Positions 4,497 to 63,084 of a stretch of DNA of 64,000 bases are shown here, one piece after another. The notes under the pieces were generated by a model. The model saw nothing but the letters and a program-made list of their open reading frames with translations, did no database searches and was not told the origin of the DNA. The stretch covers positions 32,001-96,000 of IMG/VR virus record IMGVR_UViG_3300037721_000031; one strand, written 5' to 3'. The first letter of the stretch is position 1. Each line of letters begins with the position of its first letter. This DNA comes from a virus. Lineage: Duplodnaviria > Caudoviricetes. Both the position numbers and the translations under genes were made by a program.

Positions 4497-4548
4497 CATT
4501 TCTGTAATGCGTACATATTAGTTATAAGTATTACAACTAGTCTAACGA

Positions 4549-4705
4549 TAGTGCTGTCTGATTGTAGATATAAGTAGCACACGCGTAGATGTAAGTTATC
4601 TAACACAGTGCTTATCAATACAACCAGACAGCATTAGCTACCGGGCTTTCTTACGCCTTGGAGGAGCGCTTCTATCACCATGGAAAAAGGTAAACACAGT
4701 GATAG
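4549..4705. ncRNA. Candidate structured intergenic RNA of unknown class
   Basis: Long nested stem at 4549-4636 (tagtgctgtctgattgta / tacaaccagacagcatta, with inner agcac/gtgct and tagat/atcta), then ctatcac/gtgatag hairpin at 4672-4705. No ORF of 60 aa or more in this 280-bp gap. Confidence 0.3.
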
Positions 4706-4781
4706 CGATTCAGAGACAGCCAGTCCCTTACAGATCATAGCAATACTCTGTAACTTTTTACAAAACATATACTAATACTAT

Positions 4782-5177
4782 TTAGATCAGCTGAATATCA
4801 AGATTATTGAAACCATTCTGAACCAACGCAATCCGTACTCTCTCAACATCAGAGCTACTAACACCTTCGATCTTAACCACCATACGCCTGGACTCTACTA
4901 ATTCAAGCGTGTCCAGGTTAATCCATGGAATGCCAAGAATTGTAGCTACTCCAGATGCAGTTCTGATACGAATATAGTCGTACTGTGACGGATCATCAGG
5001 AATACCGGACGGTAAATGAGGATATACGTTAGTGTGAATAGCTGGAATATCAACTGTCTGTAACGCTGTCTCGTAATCTAAGATTGCAAGAATAGTGATG
5101 TTCTTGAAATCATTACCTAAAATAGAAGTAGGGTGGACGTCAAAATTGTAGACGCTTTTTAACTCAAATGGATACAT
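4782..5177 (-). CDS. Conserved phiKZ-like small protein, possibly virion-associated
   Basis: 131 aa with YNFDVHPTSILGNDFKN...ILGIPWIN, a pattern recalled from jumbo phage conserved proteins. Confidence 0.55.
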   Translation of the reverse strand: MYPFELKSVYNFDVHPTSILGNDFKNITILAILDYETALQTVDIPAIHTNVYPHLPSGIPDDPSQYDYIRIRTASGVATILGIPWINLDTLELVESRRMVVKIEGVSSSDVERVRIALVQNGFNNLDIQLI

Positions 5178-18842: not shown

Positions 18843-21056
18843 ATGACTATCCTATTTGCATCGGACTGGGGTAAATACCCAGGTGCAATCATAGATTTAA
18901 AAACCCGCAACACTTCTTTTATTCGCATGGCGAGTGTACTGCGTTCAATGGGTGTTAAGAATCATGCTTTTCCTCTTGCACTGCATGATAAAACATTACA
19001 AGGTGTAGATCCTTTTGATATTACGAGACTCACTCTTGAACAGCAGTTACGTATTGCGTTAGAATGTAAAAATAATTATTGGTATTATTTTCGAGAGATA
19101 GCAAAAACTTCATCTATCGGTAGTACTGATTCTAAACCATTTCAATGCAATCGTGGTAACATTGCTTTAGCGTGGTTATTCTTTAACCACATTATGCAAA
19201 TTCTTATCCAGCCACGTCAGACTGGTAAGTCTTTCGGTACTGACACAATAATGACTTTGTTATTAAACGTCGTTTGTGTAAATACAAAAATAAATCTATT
19301 AACGAAAGATGATACGTTGAGGCGTTCTAATATACAACGCTTGAAAGATATTGCTAATGAATTACCAATTTATCTACAGCAAAAAGGTCCGACTGACTTA
19401 AACAATACTGAGGAAATTACAATTAATTCATTAGGTAATAGATATACAACACACGTTCCTCAGATGTCAGTTAAGAAAGCTATTGGTTTAGGTCGAGGTC
19501 TGACAACACCAATATTCCACATTGATGAAGCTCCATTTCAGTCAAATATAGAAATTGCTTTACCAGCAGCACTAGCCGCTATGGGTGCCGCTGTGGATAA
19601 GGCTGCCGATGAAGATGCTCCTTATGGTACTATTATTACAACTACAGCTGGTAAGAAGGATGATAAAGACGGTCGTTTTATTTATAACATGATGTCTGAA
19701 TCAGCTAATTGGACAGAACGTTTTTTAGACGCTGTTGATCATTCTGATTTAGAAAATATGATACGTCGTAATAGTCGTACTGGTAAGTTAAGAGTGTCGT
19801 GTGTTTTTAATCATCGACAACTAGGCAAGACAGATGACTGGTTACGTCGTAAGTTAGAAGAAGCTGTGCAATCAGGAGACGATGCTAACCGAGACTTCTT
19901 TAACATGTGGACTTCTGGCTCACAGACTAATCCATTACCTACAAGTGTCTTGGAAACAATCCGTGCTAGTGCTAAAGAAGTGAAGTATGTAGATATCTCG
20001 CCAATAAACGGTTATGTCACTAACTGGTACATTAATGAAGATGAGATAGAAGCTAGAATGGCGAATGGTCAATTCGTTCTAGGTATGGATACATCCGAAG
20101 CTTCTGGTGGCGATGATATTTCGCTTATTCTAGTAGATGTACGTACATTAGATTTAGTTGCATCAGGTACTTACAATGAAACTAATCTACTCATGTTTTC
20201 TAAGTGGGTAGCTCAGTGGTTTGTTAGGTTTCGTAACTTTACAGCTATTATTGAAAGACGATCTACTGGCGGTATGCTTCTTGATTATCTTCTCATTATG
20301 TTACCGGAAATGGGAATTGACCCATTTGTGAGACTGTTTAACATGATTGTTCATGAGAAAGATGAACAGCCTGAGCGTTACGCTGAAATTTGTCAACCAA
20401 TGAGTAGACGTGATTCTAATATTTACGTCAAGATGAAGAAGGCTTTTGGTTACGCCACCAGTGGATCTGGAGTAACTTCTCGCACAGCCCTGTATTCAGC
20501 AACATTGAAATTAGCCGCTACTCGTGCTGCATCTAAAATATATGATAAAAGTCTTATTGATCAAATAACAGGCTTAATTGTAAAGAATGGTAGAATCGAC
20601 CACGAAGATGGGGCACATGACGACATGGTCATTGGTTGGCTACTATGTATGTGGTTAATTACTTCTGGCGTTAATTTATCACATTACGGTATAGATACAT
20701 CTAAGTTAATGAGTAGAATTGTTGAGATTGAACATTTAGACCCTCATGAGATTTTTGAGAGACGGCAACAAGCTGATCTGAGAAAGAAGCTAGATGATCT
20801 TAGTGATCAATTAGCTAAAACTGCTGATGATTACGTGTCGATGAAAATTGAACATCAAATGCGATCATTAATGCACGGTATCACAGTAGAAGAAGATGAA
20901 ATTCTTTCTGTTGACGAAATGATAAGAATTAGTCGAGAGCGTCGAAAGACTAACAGACTTGATAAGTATTCATCGAGTAATGGACAGAATAATCATTGGT
21001 CTAAGTATCAACAACATACTCCGCAGTCTAGCGGGTATTTTGTAAGAGGTGTATAA
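18843..21056 (+). CDS. terL: Terminase large subunit (phiKZ gp25-like)
   Basis: Walker A QPRQTGKS, Walker B FHIDE, RNase H-like nuclease VLGMDTSE, and HDDMVIGW. Confidence 0.92.
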   Translation: MTILFASDWGKYPGAIIDLKTRNTSFIRMASVLRSMGVKNHAFPLALHDKTLQGVDPFDITRLTLEQQLRIALECKNNYWYYFREIAKTSSIGSTDSKPFQCNRGNIALAWLFFNHIMQILIQPRQTGKSFGTDTIMTLLLNVVCVNTKINLLTKDDTLRRSNIQRLKDIANELPIYLQQKGPTDLNNTEEITINSLGNRYTTHVPQMSVKKAIGLGRGLTTPIFHIDEAPFQSNIEIALPAALAAMGAAVDKAADEDAPYGTIITTTAGKKDDKDGRFIYNMMSESANWTERFLDAVDHSDLENMIRRNSRTGKLRVSCVFNHRQLGKTDDWLRRKLEEAVQSGDDANRDFFNMWTSGSQTNPLPTSVLETIRASAKEVKYVDISPINGYVTNWYINEDEIEARMANGQFVLGMDTSEASGGDDISLILVDVRTLDLVASGTYNETNLLMFSKWVAQWFVRFRNFTAIIERRSTGGMLLDYLLIMLPEMGIDPFVRLFNMIVHEKDEQPERYAEICQPMSRRDSNIYVKMKKAFGYATSGSGVTSRTALYSATLKLAATRAASKIYDKSLIDQITGLIVKNGRIDHEDGAHDDMVIGWLLCMWLITSGVNLSHYGIDTSKLMSRIVEIEHLDPHEIFERRQQADLRKKLDDLSDQLAKTADDYVSMKIEHQMRSLMHGITVEEDEILSVDEMIRISRERRKTNRLDKYSSSNGQNNHWSKYQQHTPQSSGYFVRGV

Positions 21057-31839: not shown

Positions 31840-32581
31840 GATGTTGAAGTTCTTGACTCCTCATAGCTTGAAGTTGTAAATAATCGACACCGTCATGCAG
31901 ATTAAGTTCTCCGATTACTTGATCTAAAATAATCGTGACACCTTCGATTACAGTATTAGCATATATTTTAGAAGCCCCATGCACAACGCAGCTTTGTCTA
32001 ATCTCTACGTTATCTGTAATTGCTGATGTCCCAGCTAAGCGAGCTGAGCCACGTGCTCGTGAGTTCTCGTACATTTGGGCGTACTCACACACTACTGATA
32101 AATCGCAGGCTTCAGAGTTATCAGCCATAACTGCATTATTGCGTATTACGGCATCTCCATATACTCTAACATTATCAGTAAGTAATGCGTCATCACATAT
32201 ACAGGAATCACCAAAAGCATGAATGTTGCCAGAGAGTCTGGCTCGATCTCGGACAACACAACACCCGTACACCTGACAATTTCCACCTATGACAACATCG
32301 TCACTAATGACTGCATCTTCACTTATTAGTGAGTTGCCTTGGACAATAGCTCTGTCTTTGACGACTGCATCATGCTCTACTCTAGAGTTCTGTGTAACCT
32401 TGGCATCGTTAAATATCCAACAACTGCCTCTTTGGCTCAGGTTATCTTCGCACTCTATAAACCCACCAAAATCACCCAGCTTAACACCCGCTAAAGGTAT
32501 ATCTCGAAGAGCCCTGATACGATAAAGTACAGTGTCATTATCTTTCGGAGCTTCAACTAATACTAGTTCGTATTTTTTCAT
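31829..32581 (-). CDS. Left-handed beta-helix (hexapeptide repeat) protein, YdcK-like
   Basis: N-terminal LYRIRALRDI...GDFGGFIECEDNLSQ.G.CWI followed by many [VI]xxxAx hexapeptides. Confidence 0.75.
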   Translation of the reverse strand: MKKYELVLVEAPKDNDTVLYRIRALRDIPLAGVKLGDFGGFIECEDNLSQRGSCWIFNDAKVTQNSRVEHDAVVKDRAIVQGNSLISEDAVISDDVVIGGNCQVYGCCVVRDRARLSGNIHAFGDSCICDDALLTDNVRVYGDAVIRNNAVMADNSEACDLSVVCEYAQMYENSRARGSARLAGTSAITDNVEIRQSCVVHGASKIYANTVIEGVTIILDQVIGELNLHDGVDYLQLQAMRSQELQHHGK

Positions 32582-41095: not shown

Positions 41096-42494
41096 CTTTA
41101 TGTCCACTGAGTTCGTTATTTCTCAGTCGGTGTGCTATGACACCCGCATTGACTTTCATCAATGAACAGACTATATCTTCACCCTACAGATAGGGTGTTT
41201 CCTATTTCCACTCACTTGAGTGTACACCGTGATAAGCGGCTAGTCGTTGAACGTTCTTCCTAAGTTAATTAGGAGCTTCGCTGCGGATTACCCAATCCTT
41301 ATATCTTTTACCATACCCGGGTAGTTAGTCCGGCCATCAATGCATTGCTGTCATCGACTTGGTGTATAAGGCTCTTAGGGTGTCCCCGTCAGTTAAGGAA
41401 AATACCATCTGACCATTTCTGATCAGTGGGACCATATGGATAATAACCATATCGAAAGTTATCAGAAAAAACTTTACTTCCTTGAGTCTTCAGTCTGTAA
41501 TCCAAAGCAGTTGGTGATATTCCCATTGCTTTGGCACAATCTGAAGCAGAATGATAATAGCCGATGTTTCCGGTTTTCTCACATATCAGTTTAACAATTT
41601 TCTTTGCGTATCCAGAAGTATTAAATTCTAGCAAAGGGTCGTTAATCTGACACCAAGGTGTTTCATCTGAAGACCACTTAATTTGAAGTAGTCCGGGTAA
41701 AATTGACTGACTTTTCCTCGATAACCATTGAGAGACAGTAGATGGCAGAATATTTTCTTCTTCACAGAAGTCTGTTATTCTTGCATACTCTTTGACAGTA
41801 TTGTCAAAGACGTTCCTAACCAAGATACTCTTGGATGTACTGTTTTTCTTCAATTCGTGTTCGATGGAATTTGGAATGTACCACGGTTCTTCACTGTATT
41901 CTCTGTATTGTTTCTTTTCAGGGAATATACGTTTTTCACCGATTTTAACTCGATACCCAATAGCGTCTTTTGACATACTGTAATATCTTGCGCATTCGAT
42001 AATACTCGGAAAATGCATCACAATCCCAGTAACAGTATTTCTTACTGAAATTGGCACACATTTTTCAGTGAGTCCATTCTTACCAGCATGCTCTGCATTT
42101 CCTTGGTAAGTAGTCCATTCTAAATTGTCAAGGCGATCATCGCCTTTTATGCCATTTTTGTGATTTACAACAAGATCATCGTAAGAGCAATCCATGGGTT
42201 TGAATACCATGCAAAGCACTCTATGTCTACCCAACGTTGTGCGTTCACTACTATCTTTGTACAAGAAGTAGTTGTAGTACCCGTCAGGATTTCGATGATA
42301 ATGTCTGATCACATTGAGTTTCTGGTCTATAATAACACCTTCCGGCGAAATCACGTATCGTGAAAATCCAGAAATCTCATAAAACCCTTGATAACATTTC
42401 GATGCAGTTGGCTCGAATAAATTCATTTTCTACTCTGCGAAGTTATATCACATTATAGAGTTAATTTCATTCTAATTCAACTATATCCATTTTA
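41096..42494 (-). mobile_element. Group I intron (IA2-like) carrying an HNH endonuclease
   Basis: 5' exon ends in U (GAT|TAA) and the intron ends in G (taaag|CCA). Q aatccgcagc at 41280-41289, R gttcaacgacta at 41241-41252, S aagatatagtct at 41168-41179; P7.1/P7.2-like hairpins and P8 caccc/gggtg. Splicing restores DRDDPKR. Confidence 0.92.
41389..42426 (-). CDS. Intron-encoded HNH homing endonuclease (NUMOD4-like N-terminus, HNH, three NUMOD1-like repeats)
   Basis: GRHRVLC...VVNHKNGIKGDDRLDNLEWTTYQGNAEHA; C-terminal repeats such as HFPSIIECARY and YYHSASDCAKAMG. Confidence 0.9.
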   Translation of the reverse strand: MNLFEPTASKCYQGFYEISGFSRYVISPEGVIIDQKLNVIRHYHRNPDGYYNYFLYKDSSERTTLGRHRVLCMVFKPMDCSYDDLVVNHKNGIKGDDRLDNLEWTTYQGNAEHAGKNGLTEKCVPISVRNTVTGIVMHFPSIIECARYYSMSKDAIGYRVKIGEKRIFPEKKQYREYSEEPWYIPNSIEHELKKNSTSKSILVRNVFDNTVKEYARITDFCEEENILPSTVSQWLSRKSQSILPGLLQIKWSSDETPWCQINDPLLEFNTSGYAKKIVKLICEKTGNIGYYHSASDCAKAMGISPTALDYRLKTQGSKVFSDNFRYGYYPYGPTDQKWSDGIFLN

Positions 42495-45400
42495 ATCATC
42501 ACGATCTGACGCTACTGATAAGAGTGCTGCGGTAGAAAACAATGCAGTAGCTCCGGTTTTACCAATAACATATCTGTTAGATGTTCCACGTAAAGAATTA
42601 AATTGAGGATCTGCACTTGTGTATGTATTGATAGCTACATCTGAAGAATCCACTGTTGCCTCTGAAATAGTACCCATATCGTTTTTATGGTAAGCACGAT
42701 TACGTTTCACCATTGAACGACCAGTACGTCCACCAACACCTGAGAATGTTACAGCTTCAGATTCTTTCAAATTCTGAATTGGATTTATTTCAAGGTTTTG
42801 ATTTTTAGCAGAATCTTCATTGATAGCTATCCATACGGCGTACGGATTTAAATCGATGGCGGCAGTAGTCTTATTTGCTCGAGCCCCATGCATTCTAACT
42901 GATCTAACTAGTTCAGAATAAAGAATACCTGCAAAACGCTCATATCCCTTAACTCTCATAAATGCAGGGTCAAGTTCGTAAGGATGTTGATCGTCTGTCA
43001 ATAACTCACCACTACGCAGTAAGAGCTTTGTGAATTCTACTGGTTCATTCATCTGCTCTAAGAGATCCTTAGTAATTGGATCAACGAACATTTGATTTAG
43101 TAGATCCAACTCTCTCATGTACCTCACACCTAAGCCAGCATCTTCAAGTAAATTGAAGTATACATCTTTACGATTGAACTCATGTGCAGGATAGTTATAA
43201 GTACTATCTTCGTGATCTTGCCAACCAGCAAGGATCATTGTGGCTAAGACATCGTCTCTGGAGAATATCCAAGTTTCGTCTTGAAATACAATACTCCATT
43301 CATCAGCTGCTAAACTAGGTCTTTGACCAGCAGGAATGATGCGTGGGTTTACTTTCAGGATCTTAAGCAGGTTATCTAACCCAATCAAGTAACCAAGTAC
43401 AACGCCTAGAGAGATGGCCTTACCGAATACCTTTAACTCAGCGTGTTCGATTGGTGCCTTATTTAAACGCAGTCCTATGAGATCCTCTAATGATGATAAT
43501 GCATGAAGTCTATTACCATTAGGACTACCATCAACAGTATAGAGTGCACCATTTCGACCCATCACCATCAGATCACCATCTTCACTCATTCCGATTAGTG
43601 TATTACCACCTTCTTCAACATCTTTTAAACTAAGATCACCCATTATTAAGTGTCTACGGTTTATCTCAAAGTTGAGTTTCCAGTTCTTATCGTTTATACG
43701 TAATGTAAAACTACGAAAGTTCTTGGCGATCGTGGTGTATAACTTTGGAGCAGCCACGCTTGGTTGAAATGCATCTCCAGTAACAACATCTGTAATCAGA
43801 TCTTGATCACTAAGGCCGATCAGCATAATAGCATCAGTAAGCCAACGACCATAGTCGTTAACTTTCTTCTCACTACGAGCAACAAAGATCTTTCCATAGT
43901 AGCTAGTCAAGGCTACTTGATTTGGAGAAATCTTACGGATCGGAAGATCGCTCTTTTGTTTACGAGTTCTGTAGTTAACATTGTTAACACGGAAGCTGCC
44001 GTCTTCAGTTACTTTTGGAATTCTGAAACGCAGTGTCGATGTAGCTCCTTGTAATGGCTTTACTTTGACGGTGTAGCTGTTGTAAGCCATCGAGACATTT
44101 TCAACTTGTTCGACCTGATAATCTAGTACGATAATTCCAGCTTTCTGCAGGTTCATTACCATACCAGCAATATCTCGCTGCATTACTTTAGTAATGTATT
44201 TTTCATCGAATTCCATCAGTGACGATTTAAGCATGGTCTTATCGACTAAGGTGCTTTTATCAGGAATAGAAGGAGATTCTTTAATGTCGAGTAGGTCTCT
44301 AGGAATGTTAATAAACTGATCTAATGTGGTACCATCAGGAGCAGTAATACTCTTATATGTCCCAGCTAACTCTAGATACTTACGATAATCCGCAGCAGAT
44401 AATCCTCCAGAGTCAGCCAGAGCATTACATCTGGCAATGATGGAATCTTCAAGGGACTGTCCAGTAGGAATTACTGTAGCAATATCGAAAACTTCTTGAT
44501 CGTCAGTTAATTCGGTATCGTTAGAACTAACAGCAATATCTTCAAGTGTTTCTAAGTCAGCATCTACCTGTGCATCTATGTTTACGATGTCTTCTGGTGA
44601 CTGCACTTCTTGTTCGTCGTCTTCTTCAGGACTAACTACTTCGATGTCGTCATTATCCAGATTAGAAGTAAACGAATCATCAGTATTATCAGTTACACTA
44701 GTTGCTGTTTCTTGTACTTTACTTACAGCCGCAATAGTATCAGAGTTCTCTTCATCTTTACTCGGTTCATTAACAATACCGGCACGAGCCTCGAACAAAC
44801 TCATTGATAACCGAATGAACAGCTTCTGCATCCGATCAGCGGGATGACCGTGAGCGTTAAGAGTAGAATCTTTTTCTAACTCTTCTTTGGTTGCTTTACG
44901 CCAGACATTCAATTGTCCGAGATTAAGTACAAACCAGCGTCCTGACTCTCTAAATATTAGATTCACACGATCTAAGTTTTTAACAGGAATTTTAGAGATC
45001 GCTGATTCTTCTCTCTTAGTACCCAACCATTGCCATACTTGTAACAGAATGATTGATTCTGACGATGTGAATATCCGTGCTGACTTCTGATCGATAGCTC
45101 TCTCAGCCTGACGTAATTGTGTCAAGCTAGGTAACGTCTTAGGAATATCGAATTCGATGAACTGATGTCTATCAGTAGTCTCAGCTACCTCAGCTACTTT
45201 AGTAAATACAGTAGAAATTAAATTATTCCACCGGTAATACGACGTATAGTAATTACGCAGGTATTTGTATAACCTGTGTATGAAACTATAGTTATACACT
45301 AGTACAGACTGTGGATCACGAACAGCACTCTCTAAAGATTTGAAAGGTCTGAATCGTGGATTCTTAGCTCTGTGACTACGGATTACGCGGTTAACGTCTA

Positions 45401-45656
45401 TCAGTAAACGCCTTGGATTACCATCGGTGTGCTTAAGTTCTGTAACTGTGTCTATAGTAAATGGTCTAGCTGAACTCTTGATAGCATTCTCTGATTCAGT
45501 AGGTCCATCATCCAAAGGACCTGTACCTAAATAATGATAGATTGAATTGCGTGGTAAGTCTAACAATTCTAATCTAGACAGAGGAGGCTTGATTAGTTGA
45601 TCAATCTTACGAATACCGTATTTTCTATAAAAAACTGGATACTGTAGTGTGGTCAT
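42495..45656 (-). CDS. Virion RNA polymerase beta-like subunit (phiKZ gp178-like), 5' exon
   Basis: 1054 codons; GVGGRTGRSM and DMGTISEATVDSSDVAIN motifs; ends ASDRDD at the intron. Confidence 0.9.
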
Positions 45657-45670
45657 ATTTCTATTAGTAC

Positions 45671-47296
45671 TTAATCATCACCCGTAAGATTACGACATAC
45701 GAGTTCGACAGTGTGTACTCCTGTACGATTAATAAACTGTCCGTCAGTACCTACGTAGGCACGACGACTGTTGAAAAACTCTTCACATTCTTCTATAGCC
45801 TCTTGAGAGTACGCTACAGTATAGCTGGAAGTGTCGCCATCGAAGTCGGCACCCATACGGGCGAGTTTATTGACAGCAGGAATAAGAGAGTTTACAAATG
45901 CTGCTCCTTTTACAGGGAACTCATAAGCCATTGCATCATCACTCATTGGCTGCCATTGCTCATTAAGCTGCATTCGTCTTTCAGATGTAAGAGTTACTCG
46001 AAGATAAGTTCTACTAGGATAAATAGAACCAATGCCCGTAATGGGATATCGAGTAACCATTGCTGGATATGTATTAGCCTTCTTATAAACAGCAATGTAG
46101 AACAGTTCAGCTAGTGAAATTGGTCTCACATCCTTCTTACTACGAGAAGAAGGTAGTTCAGAAATATCATGCATAATCCTGAATGTATTGTCAGGACCTA
46201 GGTACAGTAATGCTATATAACGGCCGTCAATTTCTAAAGGTACGTCGCGAATACTTTCTTCCTTGAAAGAAGAAATAATTCTTTCAATACCTTCGTTTGT
46301 AGCCCATTGATTATAATAGCGACTATGTAATAGTACCTCTTCTGACTCTAGTGTTTCTTTATTTACTAGACGAGCTGGCTGGTTTACATCAGGAAAGATA
46401 GATTCCAATAACCTACGAATTTGAAATACTGTTACCGGCAATGTAGCCTTCATGAACTGATATAACCCTACAATTGTAGAGTTGACATCAGGATTACCTT
46501 TTCTACCAAGATATGGTACAGAGGTATCCATAGCAGTAATCACGTTTCTAGTACCATTGAATACTCTGCGAGATGCCCACTTTCCTAGCAACAGTTTCTT
46601 CTTACCTTCAATTAGTGAGAAGATCATGTCGTAGATAGTGTTGAAAATTATCTGCATCTGATATCTCGGAGTGTCTAGCGCATCGACCTGAGTTTTTACA
46701 GTAGACTCATTAATAGTGTTTGAAATAGATATCAGTTGACGATAAGGCTTATTAATTTCATCTTCACTAATTCTGTTGTAGTTATCTATTTCAATATCAC
46801 GTAGTCCAGCAGGTAAAACAGCTACTTTGTCTGTTAGCGCTCTATTACCATATTTCTTAATAAGTAATACAGCTTGCTCTCTGTTAATTGAACTGGTAGT
46901 ATCGAAATGAATCTTTAACCAATGCTCAATAAAAAAAGCATACCCTGTAGAGCCATCGATGGCGCTAGCTTTAACAAAGTCTCTCAGTTCTTCATCAAAG
47001 CGACCATATCCTTTACCGGATAAGATGTCGCCATAGAGATGTTTCATTTTGACTAATACGTTAAAAATAGCCGGATGCAAAATAGGTACTTTTATATCAA
47101 TGTATGCGAAGCGAAGGCTACGTCGTTCATCACCTACTCTTCCAAAGATAGATGTTGAAAATAGACCTTCTTCTGAAAAATCAGAAGATCCACCTTCAAA
47201 GATATCTAGCTTTGATATTTTCTTTAAACCACGTAACTTCTCAGGAGTTAGGTTTAAAAGGTCAACGTTAAACGGGACATCGGATGGTTTTGACAT
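45671..47296 (-). CDS. Virion RNA polymerase beta'-like catalytic subunit (phiKZ gp180-like)
   Basis: GADFDGD catalytic motif, RYPI, VFNGTRNVI, GLFSTSIFG and VLPAGLRD. Confidence 0.93.
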   Translation of the reverse strand: MSKPSDVPFNVDLLNLTPEKLRGLKKISKLDIFEGGSSDFSEEGLFSTSIFGRVGDERRSLRFAYIDIKVPILHPAIFNVLVKMKHLYGDILSGKGYGRFDEELRDFVKASAIDGSTGYAFFIEHWLKIHFDTTSSINREQAVLLIKKYGNRALTDKVAVLPAGLRDIEIDNYNRISEDEINKPYRQLISISNTINESTVKTQVDALDTPRYQMQIIFNTIYDMIFSLIEGKKKLLLGKWASRRVFNGTRNVITAMDTSVPYLGRKGNPDVNSTIVGLYQFMKATLPVTVFQIRRLLESIFPDVNQPARLVNKETLESEEVLLHSRYYNQWATNEGIERIISSFKEESIRDVPLEIDGRYIALLYLGPDNTFRIMHDISELPSSRSKKDVRPISLAELFYIAVYKKANTYPAMVTRYPITGIGSIYPSRTYLRVTLTSERRMQLNEQWQPMSDDAMAYEFPVKGAAFVNSLIPAVNKLARMGADFDGDTSSYTVAYSQEAIEECEEFFNSRRAYVGTDGQFINRTGVHTVELVCRNLTGDD

Positions 47297-57712: not shown

Positions 57713-58288
57713 TTATTGATCAGTAGAGTCAGACACATAACGCATTGCAGCATTAGTCCAACACTGTGGTACATTACCTTCTTTTAAAGCAGTTCGTATA
57801 TCTTCCATTCCATCGATCAACCAATCGGAATTCTTTGGAAATATTACAATACGTCCGAGCACTGCTTCTGTATCACCTTTTTGACGAAATAAATAAAAGT
57901 GAGTCAGGGGTAGAGAAGATGCTATAAATGATTTCATCAAACCTTCATCCTGTATGATCTTTTGGTAGTTACCTGCCAAAATATCTTCCTGGAAGTTAGG
58001 ATTGTGAACCATTGGAAGTTCTTTACCAGCAACCTTAGCTCGAATACCGTACAGATAGCGTAGAGAATCTTGGCACTTTCCAGTTCTCATGTAGAACCAA
58101 AAACCTTCCATAGATTTGAAAGGTCCAAAGTAAGGATGTACGAACGGTGTAAGTGAAAAGTGTGAAAGCTTCTTTCCTAATCGCGTCACACAATTGCTGT
58201 ACATATTCAAGTACTCGATACCGTCCTTTGAAGGATCAATATCACTAGCCTTACGAAACATCTTCTTGGCTTGAATAGGTTTGTTCAT
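57713..58288 (-). CDS. NADAR-like (T4 gp30.3-type) protein
   Basis: LSHFSLTPF...F.SMEGFW...K pattern matches the NADAR LSNF..PF...F.S.E signature. Confidence 0.5.
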   Translation of the reverse strand: MNKPIQAKKMFRKASDIDPSKDGIEYLNMYSNCVTRLGKKLSHFSLTPFVHPYFGPFKSMEGFWFYMRTGKCQDSLRYLYGIRAKVAGKELPMVHNPNFQEDILAGNYQKIIQDEGLMKSFIASSLPLTHFYLFRQKGDTEAVLGRIVIFPKNSDWLIDGMEDIRTALKEGNVPQCWTNAAMRYVSDSTDQ

Positions 58289-61256: not shown

Positions 61257-61928
61257 TTAGATTCCACTTGGTGACAAGTGCATGGCTACTAGGTATGTGC
61301 GTAACGCATCACTGGACTTAACACGAGTTCCTAAAGCAGCGATAGCGTCCTGACTTACACCACCAGTCTTAGCGATAGATTCATTCATTGCATTAAATCC
61401 TTGTGTGTCGCCACCACGGTATTTAATAAGTTCAGTTAAAGTTTTATCGAGATTAAGCGCTGCAAGAATCTGTACTTCAGGATAACTAATTTTAGATCCC
61501 TTAGATTCACCTGTAGGTTGACCAGTAAGATTATCTACAGAACGATTATGTTCAGGAATAGAGATCTTAGAAATCAACAGCTGAGCTTGTCGACGTAAAG
61601 GTAAGTCTATAACAAGATACGGAATTGGAGACAAGTACGGAGCTGATCCTTCCTTACTCTCCATCCAAATATGTTCAAAGAACTCGTGACCAATTTCTTT
61701 AGCTAATGCTAAGTTTCTCTCAACAGTCAAAGAGGTGTCATTCATAATTGGAGAGATAATGGCTAGTTTAATTGAACCATTATCTAATCCATTGATGAAG
61801 TTTTCAAACTGTTCATCATCCATCTCTTTAAATGCATCTTGATACATCTGTGGATTACTGGATCCTGGCAGTAACTTATCGACAAGCTTAATAATTACAG
61901 CCTCAGCAGCTGATCTATTTCCTGGCAT
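61257..61928 (-). CDS. Virion RNA polymerase beta C-terminal fragment subunit (phiKZ gp149-like)
   Basis: LTGQPTGESKGSKISYPEVQIL...ELIKYRGGD parallels bacterial beta [23 protein letters not shown]...EMLTVKSDD. Confidence 0.75.
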   Translation of the reverse strand: MPGNRSAAEAVIIKLVDKLLPGSSNPQMYQDAFKEMDDEQFENFINGLDNGSIKLAIISPIMNDTSLTVERNLALAKEIGHEFFEHIWMESKEGSAPYLSPIPYLVIDLPLRRQAQLLISKISIPEHNRSVDNLTGQPTGESKGSKISYPEVQILAALNLDKTLTELIKYRGGDTQGFNAMNESIAKTGGVSQDAIAALGTRVKSSDALRTYLVAMHLSPSGI

Positions 61929-61931
61929 GAT

Positions 61932-62633
61932 TTATTCCTGGTTTATGGTGTCTGGCTGAACTTTAAATACAAGTGTAGGTATCTCTTTACTAAGAGCTAG
62001 CTCAATCATATTTTTTGTTCCGTTACTGTTCATATCGAAAAATGCTATTAAATGCGTAGCTACTTCAGCCATCTCAGCATTACGTACAAACCCTGCACGC
62101 TTACCAAGATTATCCCAATCAGCTGTAAATGGTACCCAACGTACACCGTTGCTTTCAGCCCACTTAATAGCCATGGCGTCAGCTCCACGACTTGCATTTC
62201 CAGATACGATCACAAAATTAGAAACACCAAGCATCTTTATCGCTTTTTCTAAGCGATCACAGAAATCCGTATAGTTATTCCAATTACGAGATCCAGCTAC
62301 TACAATCATAGCTGGAGGGTTGACTATATTGTCTGGTTGATGATGTAGATTACGGTTTGGTTTAGTTAATTTTCTACGACAATACTTCTTGACTCTAGAT
62401 TGGGAAATGTCTTTAGCAGTATACATCATTGATGATGCTGCGTGTACATCTCCCAATTCCATCTCTAGATCTCTACGATTAGTCTGTACTGGATCAAGAG
62501 GGTTATAGCTTTCATAACCATGTCGTAAGATCTTACCAACAGCCTTTACTGACTCACCGAGTTCCTCTACCAGGATCGAGAGTCTCTCTAGCTCAGCAGC
62601 ATTAAGTTGATTGGCATTATCCATAGTTACCAA
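61932..62633 (-). CDS. MazG-like NTP pyrophosphohydrolase fused to a SLOG (YspA/DUF2493-like) domain
   Basis: N-terminal LVEELGESVKAVGKILRHG...LEMELGDV; C-terminal IVVAGSR, IVSGNASRGAD, WDNLGKRAGFVRNAEM and SNGTKNMI. Confidence 0.75.
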   Translation of the reverse strand: MVTMDNANQLNAAELERLSILVEELGESVKAVGKILRHGYESYNPLDPVQTNRRDLEMELGDVHAASSMMYTAKDISQSRVKKYCRRKLTKPNRNLHHQPDNIVNPPAMIVVAGSRNWNNYTDFCDRLEKAIKMLGVSNFVIVSGNASRGADAMAIKWAESNGVRWVPFTADWDNLGKRAGFVRNAEMAEVATHLIAFFDMNSNGTKNMIELALSKEIPTLVFKVQPDTINQE

Positions 62634-62983
62634 CTAAGGTTCGGAAGTTGATGCTTAACAATTACAGGTACTACACTTTCTTTAAACAACAGTAACCAGG
62701 TATACATAGGACCTTCATCCATAATGCAGTACCGTGCAACAGTGGTGTCTTCATCGACCATACCCAGAACAGGCCGCCAATACCTATTAACTAAAAACCT
62801 CTTAGCCATCTGAGGAGTACTGGGATCAGAGGCTACAGGATCTAAACCAATAGTCCACTTACTAGGCTCAGAGTGTCCGGCTTCAATCAGCAGCTCAGTA
62901 ATCGCTTGTACAGGATCAATTGCTTCTTCGGTAGGGTACTTATCCCTAAGTAATTGATTTGTACTTTTTTGGTCATTAGACAT
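62627..62983 (-). CDS. Conserved hypothetical protein
   Basis: Likely start MSNDQ at 62983; RYCIMDEG..WL.LF...VVP motif. Confidence 0.6.
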   Translation of the reverse strand: MSNDQKSTNQLLRDKYPTEEAIDPVQAITELLIEAGHSEPSKWTIGLDPVASDPSTPQMAKRFLVNRYWRPVLGMVDEDTTVARYCIMDEGPMYTWLLLFKESVVPVIVKHQLPNLSW

Positions 62984-63084
62984 TATGTAACTTTCTAGAA
63001 AAAAAAAAGAATGATTGTTACAGAATACTGCTTGCATCACCGCAAGCAGTATTCTTTTATTAAATTAAGCTAACGAAAATATAT

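Follow-up and report, generated by a model that had tools for sequence, protein, structure and literature searches.

A MazG-like module fused in frame to a YAcAr SLOG domain in a phiKZ-like jumbo phage

The fusion gene and its two domains

The IMG/VR record IMGVR_UViG_3300037721_000031 is a virus genome of 266,566 bp, 98% complete, which belongs to a phiKZ-like jumbo phage and encodes split RNA polymerase (RNAP) beta subunits, a tail sheath and a ribonucleotide reductase. We analysed positions 32,001 to 96,000 of this record, a stretch of 64,000 nucleotides that we call the window and in whose numbering coordinates are given unless otherwise stated. The window also encodes a DNA polymerase and ribonucleotide reductase, and on its minus strand a single uninterrupted open reading frame (ORF), at 61932..62633, joins an N-terminal MazG-like module to a C-terminal SLOG domain. 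This in-frame fusion had been proposed in a sequence-only reading of the same DNA and is borne out here, since both domains are recovered in the one ORF by Pfam and PHROG matches, by an AlphaFold2 (AF2) model, by Foldseek and by VIA-align. The span described in that reading is real and amounts to 233 amino acids (aa) when counted from TTG 62633, but the start had been placed too far upstream. All 14 homologues begin at the position of ATG 62624, three codons inside the TTG, with a common M-x-N-x-N opening, whereas the TTG is not conserved; we therefore assign the product a length of 230 aa and place the coding sequence of the fusion protein, P0001, at 61932..62624 including its stop codon. GC content is 40.1% across the gene, 39.9% and 40.2% in its two halves and 39.1% in the window as a whole, so that neither half departs from its surroundings. 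The full-length AF2 model has a predicted local distance difference test (pLDDT) score of 88.9 and a predicted template-modelling score (pTM) of 0.74.

The N-terminal half (aa 1–96; 62337..62624) is, on profile, conservation and model evidence, soundly predicted to be a small MazG-type all-alpha nucleoside triphosphate (NTP) pyrophosphohydrolase. In the AF2 model, where this domain reaches a pLDDT of 94, the module spans residues 8–96 with helices at 9–35, 49–69 and 75–87. The acidic metal-binding motifs are present, E20-E21-x-x-E24 on the first of these helices and E54-x-E56-x-x-D59 on the second; E21, E24, E54, E56 and D59 are invariant in all 15 of the fusion proteins described below, and E21, E24 and E56 in all 65 members of the family. 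With these residues intact and conserved, the module looks catalytically competent. It is matched over aa 2–88 by phrog_4856 (‘nucleoside triphosphate pyrophosphohydrolase’; E 1.9e-14). The Pfam MazG model, PF03819, scores under its cut-off on P0001 (17.0 bits against 22; 18.3 bits in the genome scan) and above it on three close relatives (P0143, 24.7 bits; P0179, 23.0 bits; P0186, 22.9 bits), so that membership is established through the family profile rather than from the P0001 sequence by itself. When compared with PDB sequences, the 65-sequence profile finds Bacillus MazG (5ie9) and YpjD (2gta) at E 0.002, and both acidic motifs fall in register with the EEMGE and EEELGDV of these proteins.

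Structural comparison gives the same answer. The top ten PDB chains found by Foldseek with the N-terminal domain are all of the MazG family (5ie9, 7mu5, 2a3q, 2gta, 6sqw, 2oie), with probabilities of 0.91–0.99 and template-modelling (TM) scores of 0.44–0.49; the E-values are weak (0.3–0.7) because the domain is short. In the ESM Atlas a viral MazG cluster matches it with a TM of 0.89. The solved small MazG-like enzymes (5ie9, 2gta, DCTPP1/RS21-C6 as 7mu5/2a3q, and the integron iMazG 2q9l) share the all-alpha fold and the EExxE...ExxD pattern, but are only 20–24% identical to the domain, whose subfamily has invariant LRHGYES, NR and C-terminal YLHHQ motifs of its own. The subfamily is normally standalone, with proteins of 100–130 aa found in about 60 mid-sized phages of Proteobacteria.

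A linker of eight residues (aa 97–104; 62313..62336), delimited by alignments and coinciding with the block of lowest pLDDT in the model (scores of 61–75), leads into a YAcAr/DUF2493 SLOG domain (aa 105–225; 61950..62312). The sequence-only reading had identified the EE..E...ExxD motif and placed the domain boundaries essentially correctly, apart from ending the SLOG domain at about residue 228 rather than at about 225. The Pfam family YAcAr (PF10686, formerly DUF2493; ‘YspA, cpYpsA-related SLOG family’) matches aa 107–171 with 55.2 bits against a cut-off of 28.2 (E 6.4e-15; 57.2 bits in the genome scan), phrog_289 covers aa 106–229 (E 1.6e-29), and DUF2493 proteins in BFVD match the SLOG half at E 1e-13. 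AF2 predicts a five-stranded Rossmannoid, with strands at 105–111, 137–142, 163–166, 191–196 and 217–221 and helices interleaved. The SLOG motifs are G111-S-R113, S141-G-x-A-x-x-G147-x-D149, R181-N182, D197 and S200-x-G202-T203, among which G111-S-R113, G142, G147, D149, R181-N182, D197, S200 and G202 are invariant in 15 of 15 fusions and T203 in 14. Eleven residues are invariant across 63 YAcAr members (G111, R113, G142, G147, D149, W170, A177, G178, R181, N182 and G202), and P0001 has them all; most catalytic or ligand-site residues of the fusion are conserved in the standalone families too.

In structural terms the SLOG domain is closest to YpsA and ShosA (VIA-align Z 12.1 and 12.0), followed by DprA (10.2–11.1), a molybdenum-cofactor carrier protein (MCP; 10.1), the SLOG domain of ThsA bound to 3' cyclic ADP-ribose (3'cADPR; 9.0) and LOG (8.8), in alignments that cover about 113–120 residues. 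These cellular proteins (ThsA 7uxs, DprA 3uqz/4ljk, ShosA 8zva, YpsA 2nx2, LOG 5ajt) share the Rossmannoid SLOG fold with the fusion but have no significant sequence match to it, and their roles are diverse: ThsA is a sensor of 3'cADPR, DprA binds single-stranded DNA (ssDNA) and LOG is a phosphoribohydrolase. A phmmer search of PDB sequences with the whole protein found no match, and the YAcAr profile found only chance matches there (LasR and ribosomal protein S3, E > 0.2). No NCBIfam family matches the fusion protein, and the sole PADLOC match is to ShosA (E 0.007). When the whole model is compared with the PDB by Foldseek, long alignments of a spurious kind (KimA, eIF2B) predominate, and only the rows for DprA, ShosA and MCP are meaningful. 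Membership of the DprA/Smf family (PF02481) was considered and rejected: the match reaches 19.9 bits against a required 29.6, over aa 105–162 only (E 4e-4), the SAM, winged-helix and C-terminal DML1-like accessory domains of DprA are absent, the protein is too small to hold them, and the likeness is one of fold only. In LOG enzymes, which are cytokinin riboside 5'-monophosphate N-glycosidases, the catalytic residue is the Glu of the PGGxGTxxE motif; judged by motif position only, the equivalent in the fusion is Met206 of G202-T203-K-N-M206, which is invariant.

Distribution, genomic setting and origin of the fusion

A search of 5.8 billion proteins recovered 14 further clusters with both halves, at 48–83% identity and with lengths of 226–254 aa. 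The resulting 15 fusion clusters (48–100% identity) derive from independent assemblies (JGI, ENA and Logan). In L001 (the contig of P0015, 48% identity) and L012 (P0012, 61%) at least eleven neighbouring genes form a block collinear with that of the window, and the P0014 contig has the same order of gene sizes; a fusion and a set of collinear genes shared among independent assemblies exclude an artefact of assembly. Error in sequencing or assembly, or a recent frameshift that joined two genes, would agree with the standalone occurrence of either half elsewhere and with a methionine, M106, where SLOG genes that stand alone have their start, but its probability is vanishingly small: the frame is uninterrupted in all 15 clusters down to 48% identity, the internal methionine is lost in three members while linker length is conserved, and the sequence upstream of M106 is CCCTCC, with nothing resembling a Shine-Dalgarno sequence for an internal start.

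The sequence-only reading had allowed that such a fusion might be commonplace, and this is not so. An exhaustive HMMER search of 1.84 billion representatives at 50% identity returned one full-length cluster, and the rest of the best 150 matches were to a single half. No fusion was found among 50,697 phage records, to which the region has no nucleotide match either, and none of the viral structures in BFVD matches beyond the SLOG half. Searched with the whole protein, tblastn matches 958 phage records through either domain, about 60 of them via the MazG half. The one record with an apparent coverage above 80%, Variovorax phage V45v66, was examined as a candidate and rejected, since its SLOG ORF is a separate one of 126 aa preceded by stop codons.

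The fusion gene is tightly packed between its neighbours on the same strand. The upstream gene (62627..62983; probable start ATG 62983) is matched in both L001 and L012 by an orthologue in the equivalent place, and its TAA stop lies 2 nt before the ATG of the fusion gene, a spacing which suggests that the two are co-transcribed and translationally coupled. On the other side, 3 nt beyond the stop codon of the fusion gene, begins a 223-aa RNAP beta fragment (61257..61928; phrog_3233, E 2.1e-79), a split subunit of the phiKZ type and the conserved neighbour of the SLOG gene. By identity of this fragment (56–58%) the nearest isolates comprise three phages of Ralstonia (RP12, RP31 and FLC1-1B) and one of Burkholderia (FLC9), the RP12 orthologue being ORF055 (58%). 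The GenBank records of RP12 (AP017924.1), RP31 and FLC1-1B label the orthologue of the fragment as a ‘putative virion structural protein’.

Comparison with isolates also indicates how the fusion arose. In RP12, FLC1-1B and RSF1 a gene encoding SLOG only stands directly upstream of the same RNAP beta fragment. These genes (RP12 ORF056, FLC1-1B gp55 and RSF1 ORF052) share the position and surrounding synteny of the fusion, and their products are 36–45% identical to its SLOG half (from query residue 96, 99 or 106 to residues 222–225), but they have no N-terminal MazG module and are annotated as ‘putative GTP-binding protein’ or hypothetical. We found no support here for the ‘GTP-binding’ label of phrog_289. 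A MazG module of the fusion's subfamily was found nowhere in the RP12 or FLC1-1B records. Since the closest isolates have SLOG-only genes at the same position, the MazG module is an addition to an older SLOG gene. The junction falls just past YLHHQ, the natural C-terminus of standalone MazG-like proteins, and M106, which 12 of the 15 fusions have, lies two residues beyond the linker at the point where standalone SLOG proteins start (MKIAVVGSR in L002). The simplest history, as read from these sequences, would be that a MazG-like gene landed before the older SLOG gene and that the two frames then merged.

The annotation of the RP12 orthologue deserves a comment in itself. ORF056 is recorded as a protein of 95 aa (NC_041911.1, 4695–4982), and SLOG similarity continues in frame from 4515 to 4982; the annotated start therefore lies beyond the first strand and the GSR motif, and the annotation looks N-terminally truncated.

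Candidate functions of the fusion protein

YAcAr/DUF2493 SLOG domains abound in phages, and SLOG domains are reported in 31% of jumbo phages (PMC9503650); viral members of the family are recurrently fused to other domains. The SLOG relatives that we retrieved are fused to NADAR (five proteins), DUF4326, DUF488-N3a, DUF7831, a phosphatase of the PTP type and a PIF1 helicase; surveys add fusions to Macro, NADAR and Nudix domains and expect viral SLOG domains to be sensors or processors of host signals derived from ADP-ribose, with the fused hydrolases dividing the labour (Iyer et al. 2021, PMC7824862; Iyer et al. 2022, PMC9503650). MazG is not among the SLOG partners named in the passages of the two surveys that we consulted. 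The viral YAcAr SLOG fusions described there resemble the present protein in family, motifs, preference for jumbo phages and the pairing of SLOG with a small hydrolase of nucleotide phosphate or ribose moieties, but differ in the partner, a MazG-type all-alpha pyrophosphohydrolase found here in only one protein cluster. This fusion is a rare variant of the theme of viral SLOG joined to nucleotide hydrolase, apparently one not described before, since we found no account of it.

We tentatively favour the view, to which we would give a little less than an even chance, that the protein is a tandem enzyme for the removal of a phosphorylated nucleotide signal, an alarmone or a toxic nucleotide. The SLOG domain would bind, and possibly process, the ribose or base part of a phosphorylated nucleotide that the host makes or uses during infection; the ligand could be a nucleotide signal, derived from ADP-ribose or otherwise, or an alarmone, for instance (p)ppGpp, or a toxic non-canonical NTP. 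The MazG module would cleave a pyrophosphate linkage of the SLOG-bound molecule, as a counterpart to the Nudix, NADAR, DUF4326 or phosphatase domains with which SLOG is combined in other viral proteins, and the net effect would be to remove that molecule early in infection, to the benefit of counter-defence or host takeover. Of the parts that the MazG module might play, the most likely is to cut a pyrophosphate bond in a nucleotide, or in a signal derived from one, which the SLOG domain binds or processes.

A functional precedent exists in Atd1 of Pectobacterium phage PcCB7V (Ho et al.), a phage-encoded MazG-like (p)ppGpp pyrophosphatase with a demonstrated anti-defence role, which hydrolyses ppGpp and counteracts the toxicity of TIR-STING (bioRxiv 10.1101/2022.06.09.495361). 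Atd1 differs in being a single-domain protein without SLOG. PcCB7V is absent from the 60 phage records that match the N-terminal domain at E <= 1e-3, a comparison made at the level of phage records. Given this precedent and its fit with published predictions for viral SLOG domains (PMC9503650, PMC7824862), the original suggestion, that the protein traps an immune signal or alarmone and destroys it, is plausible.

The same reading had also pointed to NADAR-like and PnuC-like genes as signs of a nucleotide/NAD counter-defence repertoire, for which the evidence is weak. The NADAR-like candidate is a standalone protein of 191 aa, encoded at 57713..58288 in the same minus-strand gene block as the fusion gene and matched by phrog_652 (E 1.5e-30). 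It has no Pfam match, and BLASTP comparison with NADAR-SLOG fusion proteins is not significant. With phrog_11222, a family that matches SLOG in its C-terminal part, it aligns over the N-terminal part (E 1e-23), and an hhalign comparison of its family with the NADAR domains of SLOG fusions gives a probability of 84.7% (E 6.7e-6), which lends moderate support. The gene co-occurs with the fusion in related contigs, with orthologues in L001, L012 and FLC1-1B. It plausibly encodes a divergent NADAR-like protein, and as such mildly supports a pathway shared with the fusion. The PnuC element of the proposal found no support, there being no PnuC match by Pfam anywhere in the genome. Nine neighbouring ORFs had no match in Pfam, nor by phmmer to any of the retrieved proteins.

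Several observations weigh against the favoured view of the protein as a tandem enzyme that removes a nucleotide signal. Pfam models for NADAR and PnuC match nothing in a genome that is 98% complete, and the surroundings of the fusion gene are RNAP and structural genes, with no anti-defence island evident. Next to P0019 and P0028, two MazG-like relatives that stand alone, there is no SLOG gene; the two modules are therefore not generally coupled, and the fusion is one event confined to a single lineage. In fold the SLOG domain is at least as close to DprA and ShosA as to ThsA and LOG; this likeness, together with fusions of relatives to PIF1 helicase, makes a nucleic-acid ligand possible. Finally, with Met206 in place of the LOG catalytic Glu, LOG-type N-glycosidase activity of the SLOG half is doubtful.

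The best placed of the alternatives, which we nonetheless consider on the unlikely side, is house-cleaning of the nucleotide pool, in which the MazG module would hydrolyse canonical or aberrant nucleotides (dUTP, dCTP, dITP or oxidised deoxynucleoside triphosphates, dNTPs), with no immune signal involved, so as to protect or bias phage DNA synthesis, while the SLOG domain would serve as an allosteric nucleotide sensor or further degrade the nucleoside monophosphate (NMP) produced. The nearest solved relatives of the N-terminal domain (Bacillus MazG, YpjD, DCTPP1 and DR2231) are house-cleaning enzymes, NMP nucleosidases of the LOG/PpnN type are among the fold neighbours of the SLOG domain, and ribonucleotide reductase and DNA polymerase genes lie in the window; jumbo-phage MazG-like enzymes have, moreover, been suggested to degrade endogenous NTPs (Iyer et al. 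2021, PMC7824862, in the portion available). The Met at the LOG catalytic position tells against this reading, and the usual SLOG partners process ADP-ribose or phosphate moieties and are not enzymes of dNTP metabolism. The closest isolates also manage without any MazG module. A further argument for house-cleaning is the lack of any match to the Pfam dUTPase model in the whole genome. Outside the window, however, a 202-aa ORF at 183082–183624 of the genome, which that model does not detect, is 49% identical to a gene of FLC1-1B with a weak dUTPase fold (PF00692), and this gene is shared with both RP12 and FLC1-1B, which are without the MazG module. There is thus no pattern of displacement; the idea that the MazG module replaced a lost dUTPase was rejected, and the retention of the dUTPase-fold gene weakens the case for house-cleaning.

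A more specific form of the signal-removal reading, in which the protein is a two-step machine for inactivating a phosphorylated nucleotide immune signal or alarmone, with the YAcAr SLOG domain as a catalytic or capturing unit, is in our judgement unlikely. Were it true, the ligand of the family would carry a pyrophosphate or triphosphate, as do pppGpp/ppGpp, ADP-ribose-derived signals and NTP-derived toxins, and the protein would represent a previously unrecognised class of phage counter-defence enzyme and would open the viral SLOG family as a whole to biochemistry.

Less probable again is a protein directed at nucleic acids, whose DprA-like SLOG domain would bind ssDNA or RNA, possibly ADP-ribosylated or 5'-triphosphorylated, and tether the MazG module to sites of replication, recombination or transcription, there, for instance, to remove pyrophosphate from 5'-triphosphate ends or to clean dNTPs locally. 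The fold similarity to DprA and ShosA (Z 10–12) and the weak Pfam match to DNA_processg_A (E 4e-4) lean this way, as do relatives fused to PIF1 helicase (P0162) and, in ICP1, to HelB; partners of the NADAR-DarT1 type are reported to act on ADP-ribosylated DNA (PMC11825919). The SLOG gene adjoins an RNAP subunit gene in a conserved arrangement, with a UvsX gene nearby in relatives, but adjacency is weak evidence in tightly packed phage genomes. The Pfam score for DprA is below its threshold (19.9 against 29.6 bits), and no SAM or winged-helix accessory domain is present. MazG enzymes, besides, are known for their action on free nucleotides.

Whichever of these functions applies, the main value of the fusion is as a tractable entry into the viral YAcAr SLOG family. 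Current ideas on the function of these domains rest on domain fusions, and a MazG partner constrains the ligand, in which a pyrophosphate linkage would be expected. At 230 aa the protein is compact enough for both predicted activities to be assayed together, and a ready-made comparison with and without the MazG module is at hand in RP12, FLC1-1B and RSF1, phages that can be cultivated and whose orthologues are SLOG-only. If the target should be an immune signal or alarmone, the fusion would constitute a new type of counter-defence enzyme; if a dNTP, the protein would do ordinary house-cleaning, and its regulatory domain would be what is unusual.

Other features of the window and related sequences

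Another unusual architecture in the SLOG family was seen in P0068, a metagenomic protein of 271 aa with a tandem pair of YAcAr SLOG domains at aa 19–134 and 155–269.

Ahead of the fusion gene and its upstream neighbour, between two minus-strand genes, lies a palindromic hairpin (63022..63055, minus strand) with a perfect stem of 14 bp and a run of ten T residues 12 nt later. Identified as a pattern match only, it is a possible terminator, or a unit boundary, ahead of the operon to which the fusion gene would belong.

The window contains three RNAP beta-subunit fragments in all, of 1054, 541 and 223 aa, located at 42492–47296 (minus strand) and 61257–61928 (minus strand), in the multisubunit pattern of phiKZ-like phages. 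On the plus strand, only aa 2–194 of a 737-aa ORF (18843–21056) match terminase large-subunit PHROGs (profile positions 58–216 of 807); by this partial similarity the ORF may encode a split or highly diverged jumbo-phage terminase.

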